From a phage: a DNA stretch of 64,000 bases. The stretch lies in the sequence record PZ452595.1; one strand, 5' to 3'. A program made the position numbers and the translations under genes. Each line of letters opens with the position of its first letter. Position 1 is the stretch's first letter. The notes under the pieces were generated by a model that searched no databases, was not told the origin of the DNA, and was given only the letters and a program-made list of their open reading frames with translations. Below are positions 32,305-33,584 of this stretch, piece after piece.

Positions 32305-32334
32305 ATACTATCACAAAGGAACCGTACTGTAAAC
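32305..32334 (-). promoter_or_regulatory. Putative sigma70-type early promoter
   Basis: On the - strand: GTTTAC (plus 32329..32334), 18-bp spacer, TGA-TAGTAT (plus 32305..32310); same architecture as the duplicated cassette. Confidence 0.4.
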
Positions 32335-32363
32335 AACTTTGTGCAATCTTTGGAAAATAAAAA

Positions 32364-32383
32364 AGGACTCCCGAAGGAGTCCT
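32364..32383 (-). terminator. Strong Rho-independent terminator (AGGACUCC-UUCG-GGAGUCCU then U-run on the - strand)
   Basis: Perfect 8-bp GC-rich stem, tetraloop and T-tract just after the stop at 32388. Confidence 0.75.
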
Positions 32384-32387
32384 CAAC

Positions 32388-32564
32388 TTATGCTTTCTGC
32401 TTACCAAAACGAGAAGCATCATCTCGAAGAACCGCACGTGCTCGGCGCATGATCTTCTCAACAGTTTGATTGATACGAGAGTTCGACCCACGCTTGTAAC
32501 CAGCGCGTTTAGAATCACCAACTTTCTTTTCAACTGCTTTCTTTGCTTTAGCTTGTTTTGCCAT
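32388..32564 (-). CDS. Small basic protein
   Basis: Track ORF 32388..32606; ATG at 32564 gives 58 aa (MAKQAKAKKAVEKK...), lysine/arginine-rich. Confidence 0.5.
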   Translation of the reverse strand: MAKQAKAKKAVEKKVGDSKRAGYKRGSNSRINQTVEKIMRRARAVLRDDASRFGKQKA

Positions 32565-32852
32565 TATAAATTCTCTTTTAAATGAAAATGCAGGACTTAT
32601 TGGCATTGCCTGCGCAAGCCCTCAAGGGGAACATAGGTTTTGAATATTTACCGACAGGATAACCATAAACCTCGTCAACATACCACCAAGACTTACACAG
32701 ATAACACTTTTCTGACGCATGATAGTAACATTCAAGAGGTACACCATAAAACTGCCGGGGTCTTAAAACTATAATGATTCGCAAATCATTAATCAGACAG
32801 TTCGATGGCTCCTCGATTTTAGCTCACACTAAGGCAGTGAATCTCCAATAAA

Positions 32853-33101
32853 TTACTTCAGTGTTACCACAAAGTGACGAACTGCTTTTCGTGCAGCAGA
32901 AGCCAAAGGCTTAGCATATTTAAGTTCATCTTTTTCCTGAAGCTCAGCAGCTAATGCAGTTTGAGCAGGATTCAGATGTTTGAAATAACGCAGGATTTCA
33001 AGAGCTTCGGCTTCAACATCAATAGATGCGCCATAGTTTTCGTGACCATTATTCCATGCGTTTCGTTGCAGTTCAAGAGCGTGTTGTAATTGTTTAATCA
33101 T
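32853..33101 (-). CDS. rIII: rIII lysis inhibition accessory protein
   Basis: 82 aa, same length and position as T4 rIII. Confidence 0.8.
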   Translation of the reverse strand: MIKQLQHALELQRNAWNNGHENYGASIDVEAEALEILRYFKHLNPAQTALAAELQEKDELKYAKPLASAARKAVRHFVVTLK

Positions 33102-33240
33102 TTAAAAATTCTCGTTAGAGATTAAAACTCGGTAGTCACGTTCTTCTGAATTTCATCTTCTTTCGACAGATCTCTCAGTTGTAGACTACCACATAGAATT
33201 GTTCGGTTAACTTATTATTCCGACACCCAATTCATATTAT

Positions 33241-33248: not shown

Positions 33249-33584
33249 TCACTTATAAAGACACGGAATAGCTTTATAGTGACAGGTAACGAATTTTTGT
33301 TTAATTTCTTTTGGCTGCTTAAGACCCAGAGCTACAAAAGGATGCGGAACATTTCGAATTTGACCAACTGGAAGAGAAGTCAAATCACCAACTTCGCAGA
33401 AACCTTCAGGAACATCAGGACCGACAGAGTGAACTACACACAGTTCAGGAACTTCACCTTGGACACGTTTACCGATAATAAGTCCTGATTCTGTAACTTC
33501 TTCATCACCCGCCTGTGCGGGTTCAGAAACTAAAATAACATATTCACCGACAGCACGAATTGGTAGCTGTTGTACTTCAGACAT
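33249..33584 (-). CDS. 31: Head assembly co-chaperonin gp31 (GroES-like)
   Basis: 111 aa, same length as T4 gp31. Confidence 0.93.

Follow-up and report, generated by a model that had tools for sequence, protein, structure and literature searches.

A modular structured RNA in the rIII-30.9 interval of a T4-like phage

The 288-nt interval between rIII and 30.9 on the minus strand of a T4-like phage genome segment is a modular array of sense-strand RNA structures, designated modules A and B, the "cassette," and modules C and D. This interval, the "gap," is very probably a non-coding structured RNA. The best explanation, held with slightly better than even confidence, is that it is a structured intercistronic leader of the rIII-30.9 mRNA, with modules C and D serving 30.9. 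The longest reading frame in the gap, 68 codons beginning with TTG, is not a gene.

Gene order and transcription unit

The window, meaning the whole stretch of 64,000 nt that was analyzed (sequence record PZ452595.1), is a Tequatrovirus (T4-like) segment; an 851-nt query around the gap matched 796 phage records, the best of them with 99.9% identity. The minus strand carries, in the T4 order, gene 31 (33584..33249), rIII (32853..33101), the gap, gene 30.9 (32388..32564), a terminator (32363..32384), and 30.8. The upstream cistron rIII encodes the lysis-inhibition accessory protein of 82 amino acids (aa), and 30.9 encodes a basic protein of 58 aa (gp30.9) that belongs to phrog_1427 and is of unknown function; a search of the PDB found no relative of it. 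An earlier interpretation of the window, made from its letters only and called here the "sequence-only reading," had described a 290-bp stretch between rIII and a gene for a small basic protein, and a strong terminator downstream of this gene. These coordinates hold, with a gap length of 288 nt (32852..32565), and the intrinsic terminator that closes the rIII-30.9 unit was found as a 9-bp stem followed by a U tract. It carries a terminator annotation in phage wV7 as well.

A scan of the gap for promoters and terminators revealed neither a sigma-70-like promoter nor an intrinsic terminator or attenuator, the only terminators being located downstream of 30.9, and inspection of the gap by eye gave no match to the T4 late promoter (TATAAATA) or to a MotA box. 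Because the gap has no promoter or terminator of its own, it should be read through from rIII and be part of the rIII-30.9 transcript. A promoter-like sequence, TTTACA-17-TAGTAT with a TG, is located on the minus strand at 32305-32333, directly after the 30.9 terminator and before 30.8, which is consistent with a separate transcription unit beginning before 30.8. The initiation regions of 30.9 (AAAGAGAAUUUAUAAUG, window positions 32564-32578) and of rIII (AACGAGAAUUUUUAAAUG, 33102-33116) are similar to each other (repeat D3). Both genes may share a translational operator; alternatively, the similarity could be the ordinary composition of T4 ribosome-binding sites (RBSs).

In the T4 RefSeq record, the corresponding gap of 244 nt carries no annotation. 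Other GenBank records (e.g., LR597657, OL964745, and NC_054935) call the gap a "hypothetical protein" or a "1,4-alpha-glucan (glycogen) branching enzyme, GH-13-type." The branching-enzyme label is a RAST artefact, and the labels on the gap are likely propagated misannotations. A few records place the glucan-enzyme label on 30.9 itself, and an old name, "11.1 kDa," is attached to 30.9 in some records.

RNA modules of the gap

All modules are on the minus (sense) strand, and position p of the interval corresponds to plus-strand coordinate 32853-p. Module A (positions 1-43, 32810..32852) is a small hairpin, UUCAC-UGCCUUAGU-GUGAG (positions 12-30, 32841..32823), with a covarying stem that reads CAC/GUG in the window and in T4, CGC/GCG in VR26 and PKM.Lu.22.1, and UGC/GCA in Jiaodavirus. 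RB69-type alleles do not contain module A, which is thus dispensable.

Module B (positions 37-125, 32728..32816) is a long branched hairpin composed of the helices H1 (UCGAGG/UCUUGA), H2 (GCCR/YGGU), H3 (ACUGUC/GGCAGU), and H4 (AAUGAUU-UGCG-AAUCAUU). The 29 pairs proposed for modules A and B were standard pairs in 97.3% of the cases across 16 alleles, compared to 33-55% paired in slid controls. Most pairs of module B are invariant and hence uninformative with respect to covariation; among those that do change, pair 47-107 is GC in 9, AU in 5, and GU in 1, and helix H3 shows a double change in L010. The minimum free energy (MFE) of module B is -24.5 kcal/mol for the sense strand (z = -2.76) and -18.8 for the antisense strand. 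Four invariant G-U pairs in this module also mark the sense strand, and together with the lower sense folding energy they indicate that the sense strand is the functional one. PP01 has UUG in place of the tip of module B, H3 plus H4, and the tip of STML-198 is a short one.

The variable cassette (positions 126-170, 32683..32727) is a closed stem-loop of 45 nt in the window, UACUAUCA...CAGA-loop-UCUG...UGGUGGUA. Its inner stem covaries, with CAGA/UCUG in the window versus CAGC/GCUG in the Mosigvirus S143_2. In relatives, the cassette position is either empty, as in T4, or filled with an RNA of 140 nt, the "core."

Module C (positions 171-223, 32630..32682) is an H-type pseudoknot. Stem S1 pairs GACG[A]GG (32676..32670) with CCUGUC (32658..32653), and stem S2 pairs GGUU in the loop (32664..32661) with AACC (32639..32636), which follows a 14-nt A-rich linker, GGUAAAUAUUCAAA. 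Both stems were complementary in 11 of 11 lineages despite changed sequences: S1 also occurs as GAC-UGG/CCAGUC, GUC-UAG/CUAGAC, GUGG/CCAC, and GGCG-GG/CCUGCC, and S2 as GGUU/AACC, GUAGU/ACUAC, GUGAG/CUCAC, and GUUGGUU/AACCAAC. For the pseudoknot, 7 of the 12 pairs change on both sides, and the covariation score was 0.323 versus 0.145 for shuffled alignments, a value reached in 0 of 500 shuffles, albeit the MAFFT alignment behind this score is imperfect. With regard to a riboswitch, which would need an aptamer and a platform with alternative pairing, a pseudoknot with a conserved A-rich linker was observed, but neither a terminator/antiterminator switch nor an alternative pairing that sequesters the SD sequence was demonstrated.

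Module D (positions 224-288, 32565..32629) contains the hairpins D1 and D2, followed by the ribosome-binding region of 30.9. D1 is CCC-UUGA-GGG with a conserved CUUG behind it, and GGGCUUG is conserved across genera. The D2 stem, GCAGG (32613..32609) with CCUGC (32594..32590), encloses a loop, CAAUGCCAAUAAGU, that is conserved in the T-even types, and the stem was rebuilt with unrelated sequences in six lineages, STML-198, PEi20, UTI-K4, L161, PS49, and EcS1. The single-sequence folding z-scores of modules A, C, and D are unremarkable. A long-range pairing of UUUAUUGG in module A with CCAAUAAG in the D2 loop, as present in the MFE structure of the whole interval, was rejected, for the D2 loop persists in RB69-type alleles without module A, and changes in VR26 and STML-198 are uncompensated.

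Sequence conservation and allele series

Judged from comparisons across genera, the gap sequence is NEVERTHELESS under strong constraint. Versus two Gapriverviruses, the nucleotide identity of the genes is 78-81% for gp31, 84-86% for rIII, and 81% for 30.9, and that of the blocks in the gap is 97-99% for B, 89-91% for C, and 92-94% for D, with block borders that deviate from the final module coordinates by a few bases. Versus the Gelderlandvirus STML-198, rIII is 75% identical, module A 100% over 37 nt, and module C 91%. Part of this identity across genera could come from recent recombination. Further copies of the modules were not found within the 64-kb window.

The alleles of the T-even group differ by gain and loss of whole modules, and indels remove whole hairpins or hairpin tips. 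The shortest allele, of 119 nt in Shigella phage BCPShso_001, consists of C plus D only. It is followed by 163 nt in S143_2 (cassette, C, and D), 194 nt in PP01 (A, B with the UUG instead of its tip, C, and D), 244 nt in T4 (cassette missing), the 288 nt of the window with all modules and the 45-nt cassette, and 396 nt in ESh16, JS10, VR5, VR26, and others, which possess A and B, the 140-nt core instead of the cassette, and C plus D. This pattern of variation is that of a structured RNA and not that of genes or random spacers. The 119 nt of C plus D are the only part that was found in every allele examined.

Between rIII and 30.9, gaps of 200-370 nt with the same blocks in different orders are also present in Jiaoda-, Kanagawa-, Gelderland-, Karam-, and Kagamiyamavirus. 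In every T-even-type allele that was examined (Tequatro-, Mosig-, and Gaprivervirus), as in Gelderland-, Karam-, and Kagamiyamavirus, C plus D adjoins 30.9. Jiaoda- and Kanagawavirus display the order C-A-core-D, with only D adjoining 30.9. The locus is rearranged in PD06-type phages of about 150 kb (L008:8330-8900, L015), where the start codon of 30.9 comes after the RNA array, is joined to the 3' end of rIII, and gives way directly to tRNA genes; both junctions carry the repeat TTTATTGGAGAT, and the tRNA starts with GGAGATT, like module A. In distant genera (L136:1129-1160, L139, L137, and L138), the region just before 30.9 has AUGUAUUUCUCC...AUGGAAGA(U/C)..UAA/UGA in common. Depending on the phage, this motif is a tiny upstream open reading frame (MED* or MYFSKMED*) or an in-frame N-terminal extension; alternatively, it may represent pairing between an anti-Shine-Dalgarno and a Shine-Dalgarno (SD) sequence, UCUCC with GGAAGA.

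The 140-nt core RNA of relatives

The core is located at the cassette position, between B and C, in ESh16 (L004:767-906) and takes this place in many genera of the Tevenvirinae; L136, L137, and L139-L143 also contain copies of it. As the "150-nt insertion" of ESh16, it was found in 407 phage records of many genera with at least 90% identity. An RNAalifold consensus of 16 diverse copies contains 37 pairs, of which 19 show compensatory changes, and describes a four-way junction that is perfectly paired and has a GNRA (GAAA) hairpin and the invariant sequences GGCAAG, AUGGCCUAU, and CUAACGGUGUGCAAC. A search of the core against Rfam gave no match. A covariance model of the core, R1, scored 108-173 bits on the relatives. 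It matched neither T4 nor any part of the 64-kb window, and switching the filters off brought no match in the gap either. The possibility that the core left the 45-nt cassette behind as a relic was rejected, as R1 with filters off yielded only noise below 6 bits. A scan of 185,579 bacterial genomes with 18-mers of the core returned 3 chance matches only.

Two phages contain the core outside the 30.9 context. In the Slopekvirus K41P2 (L143:801-1180), the core is followed by D1 and an intrinsic terminator, between the uvsY region and a helicase and with no adjacent 30.9. In PKM.Lu.22.1, an unrelated phage of 76 kb from the Grimontviridae (L141:900-1100), an SSB-like gene is followed by the core, module A, an intrinsic terminator, and a sigma-like gene. 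The combination of the core with A or D1 and a terminator of its own in unrelated contexts suggests an autonomous, horizontally moving RNA gene. The far-reaching conclusion, which is put forward only tentatively, would be that the gap is an unannotated T4-type RNA locus of horizontally exchanged modules, lined up as beads on a string, and the core a new class of functional RNA, i.e., a riboswitch, a ribozyme, or an anti-defence RNA decoy. The window and T4 would then be natural core-less variants that keep the pseudoknot leader.

Function in cis or in trans

According to the best explanation, the gap would be transcribed within the rIII-30.9 mRNA and would fold into the independent modules A, B, cassette, C, and D1/D2 ahead of the RBS of 30.9. 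That C plus D is kept next to 30.9 points to a functional 5' leader of this gene, and from its position C plus D would act in cis and would set the translation of the 30.9 message, its stability, or both. The chances of this specific role as a cis leader are judged to be even. A conserved pseudoknot and hairpins upstream of the gene for a small basic protein suggest protein-mediated control, so that the likeliest form would be a protein-bound operator, by analogy with known leaders, with the small and basic gp30.9 as the obvious candidate for the binder. A, B, and the cassette would be accessory hairpins, and the site of the cassette would be the insertion point of the four-way-junction RNA. 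The distance of the pseudoknot speaks against this explanation. It lies about 60-70 nt upstream of the AUG of 30.9 and, in contrast to operators of the classical entrapment type, neither overlaps nor occludes the RBS; the SD sequence of 30.9 is reached by no more than a weak UUUUC/GAGAA pairing.

In K41P2 and PKM.Lu.22.1, A, D1, and the core occur away from 30.9, which is an argument for a function in trans of at least some of the modules. The modules may accordingly be parts of a trans-acting non-coding RNA that is released from the rIII-30.9 transcript and captures a factor of the host or the phage in the manner of a decoy or sponge, and the window would then contain a core-less, possibly crippled allele. 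The order of the modules, shuffled across genera (C-A-core-D, D1-core-C, or core-A-terminator), is in agreement with such a function, as is their nature as independent stem-loops. On the other hand, C plus D stays beside 30.9 in the T-even-type alleles even when everything else is deleted, and the gap of the window has neither a promoter nor a terminator of its own and shows no evidence of processing sites. A function in trans is the main rival explanation and is regarded as less likely than the cis leader. On both views, A, B, and the cassette count as accessory parts that a phage can do without.

Coding potential and other explanations

Three possibilities had been offered by the sequence-only reading for the gap, a real protein with a non-canonical start, a decaying gene, and a structured RNA leader. 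Only the last one is supported, by the covariation, the sense-specific G-U pairs, the indels matching the modules, and a conservation above that of the neighboring genes. The reading had also considered the outcome that nothing would be conserved in relatives; conservation is strong instead.

The 68-codon TTG frame (32578..32784, minus strand) had been described as cysteine-rich, without an ATG, and ending 13 nt before the ATG of 30.9. It indeed contains 5 Cys in 68 residues and stops with TAA at this distance. No ATG could start the long frame, which agrees with the description, but there is an internal ATG at 32634, the M of ...KPMFPL..., which yields a peptide of only 18 aa. The TTG (32784..32782) is buried in the 8-bp hairpin H4, where it extends from the last base of the stem into the UGCG loop, and no GGAG-like SD sequence is present upstream of it. 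Searches of Pfam and PHROGs with the translated frame identified no family. A tblastn search with it found matches at the rIII-30.9 locus only, and 322 of 755 records covered at least 80% of it in one piece.

A check of the frame against T4, wV7, teqsoen, ESh16, Sso113, and RB69 revealed frame-breaking differences among very close relatives. The T4 gap differs from that of the window by a 44-nt deletion and single-base indels, that of RB69 by +6 and +1, and in wV7 and teqsoen, which are 97-99% identical, a change of CCCC to CCCCC breaks the frame; it is also broken in ESh16 and others. The length over which this frame stays open varies among 16 distinct alleles (9, 19, 20, 36, 59, 61, or 67 codons), and the C-termini are unrelated to each other. 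Runs of 40-80 codons that lack a stop exist in various frames on both strands of 16 alleles from relatives, so the openness of the TTG frame is not beyond chance. The nucleotide conservation of the region and the covariation of its base pairs do exceed chance, and the substitutions in the gap track base pairing rather than codon position.

A pseudogene, i.e., a former protein gene that decays through indels, would account for the numerous length variants and frameshifts in close relatives. This explanation is very unlikely: no ATG-initiated frame was found in the equivalent gap of distant genera, and no intact ATG-initiated version exists in any relative, with at least 10 genera covered, so that the ATG-initiated orthologue sought at the suggestion of the sequence-only reading did not turn up. 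The indels keep to the borders of the RNA modules, and the gap is more conserved than the flanking genes, which is the reverse of decay.

The internal ATG opens an 18-codon mini-ORF, MFPLRACAGNANKSCIFI (32634..32578), with its stop 13 nt before the 30.9 start. It might be an upstream open reading frame that controls 30.9 through translational coupling, since its length is the same in the window, T4, RB69, VR26, and L007, and several differences are synonymous in its frame. Such a function is improbable, because teqsoen, Sso113, L182, and STML-198 have lost the ATG (CCUAAGUACC), wV7 has a shifted frame, no SD sequence precedes the ATG, and the same bases also form D1 and D2 with their covarying stems. 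An in-frame upstream extension of 30.9, a 72-aa ORF starting at an ATG at 32606, was rejected as well, being out of frame in VR26 and without the ATG in RB69.

The conservation might instead stem from an element at the DNA level, for instance a promoter, an origin of replication, or a site of recombination or homing. Cassette exchange between genera has a hotspot here, and the PD06-type phages are rearranged at their repeat. The promoter scan of the gap was negative, however, and selection on the sense RNA is indicated by the compensatory changes plus the G-U pairs, whose counterparts on the opposite strand would be A-C mismatches, leaving little probability for this explanation. A real small cysteine-containing protein from the TTG frame (32784..32578) is the least probable of all and largely refuted already, since the frame, although open in the window plus about 20 records with at least 99% identity and annotated as a CDS in some GenBank records, is not conserved even at this level of nucleotide identity and shows the other deficits listed above.

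Implications

The T4 group has been annotated intensively, yet the rIII-30.9 gap is unannotated in the T4 RefSeq record or mislabelled elsewhere. Reading it as a structured RNA frees hundreds of records from a spurious gene call and provides the widely conserved basic gp30.9 with a candidate regulatory or partner RNA. The natural allele series from 119 to 396 nt can be used as a ready experiment on the function of the modules. Such a reading also draws attention to a 140-nt phage RNA that covaries strongly and has no Rfam family; this core, which is not in the window, is the more novel object, and the window carries a reduced allele.

Comparison with known structured RNAs

The feature in the window is best read as a structured intercistronic leader RNA outside any described family. 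A search against Rfam 15 with permissive E-values, using the window, T4, RB69, and ESh16, gave nothing in the gap and only weak matches that were driven by the terminator after 30.9. ARAGORN detected no tRNA or tmRNA in the gap, and a limited literature search did not bring up a description of an rIII-30.9 RNA. A catalogue from 2023 (PMC10690425) reportedly lists more than 10,000 candidate viral structured RNAs and may include the gap RNA anonymously.

Among the closest objects is the 140-nt core itself, which in relatives occupies exactly the cassette position, between the same flanking modules B and C. It folds as a four-way junction carrying a GNRA hairpin, and the window lacks it. T4 produces rnaC and rnaD (species 1 and 2), which are stable RNAs with tRNA-like 3' ends. 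Like the gap RNA, they are small structured RNAs of T4-type phages, of unknown function and co-transcribed with their neighbors; they differ from it in locus, sequence, and structure, and a kinship was rejected, as R1 finds nothing in the T4 tRNA region.

In Escherichia coli, the leader pseudoknots of rpsO, bound by S15, and of the alpha operon, bound by S4, are operators that include the SD sequence and the AUG. With these the gap shares a small basic protein encoded directly downstream of a conserved pseudoknot, which by analogy suggests feedback. Its candidate operator differs in excluding the SD sequence and the AUG and in having no match to an Rfam leader, and the only family of gp30.9 is phrog_1427.

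The leader of T4 gene 32 contains an H-type pseudoknot that is conserved among the T-even phages and serves as an autoregulatory operator for a gene product that binds nucleic acid. No sequence similarity connects it to the gap, whose pseudoknot stands among several modules at a distance of about 60-70 nt from the start codon. In both cases, an H-type pseudoknot is located in the 5' leader of a T-even gene, and gp30.9 may plausibly bind nucleic acid as well.
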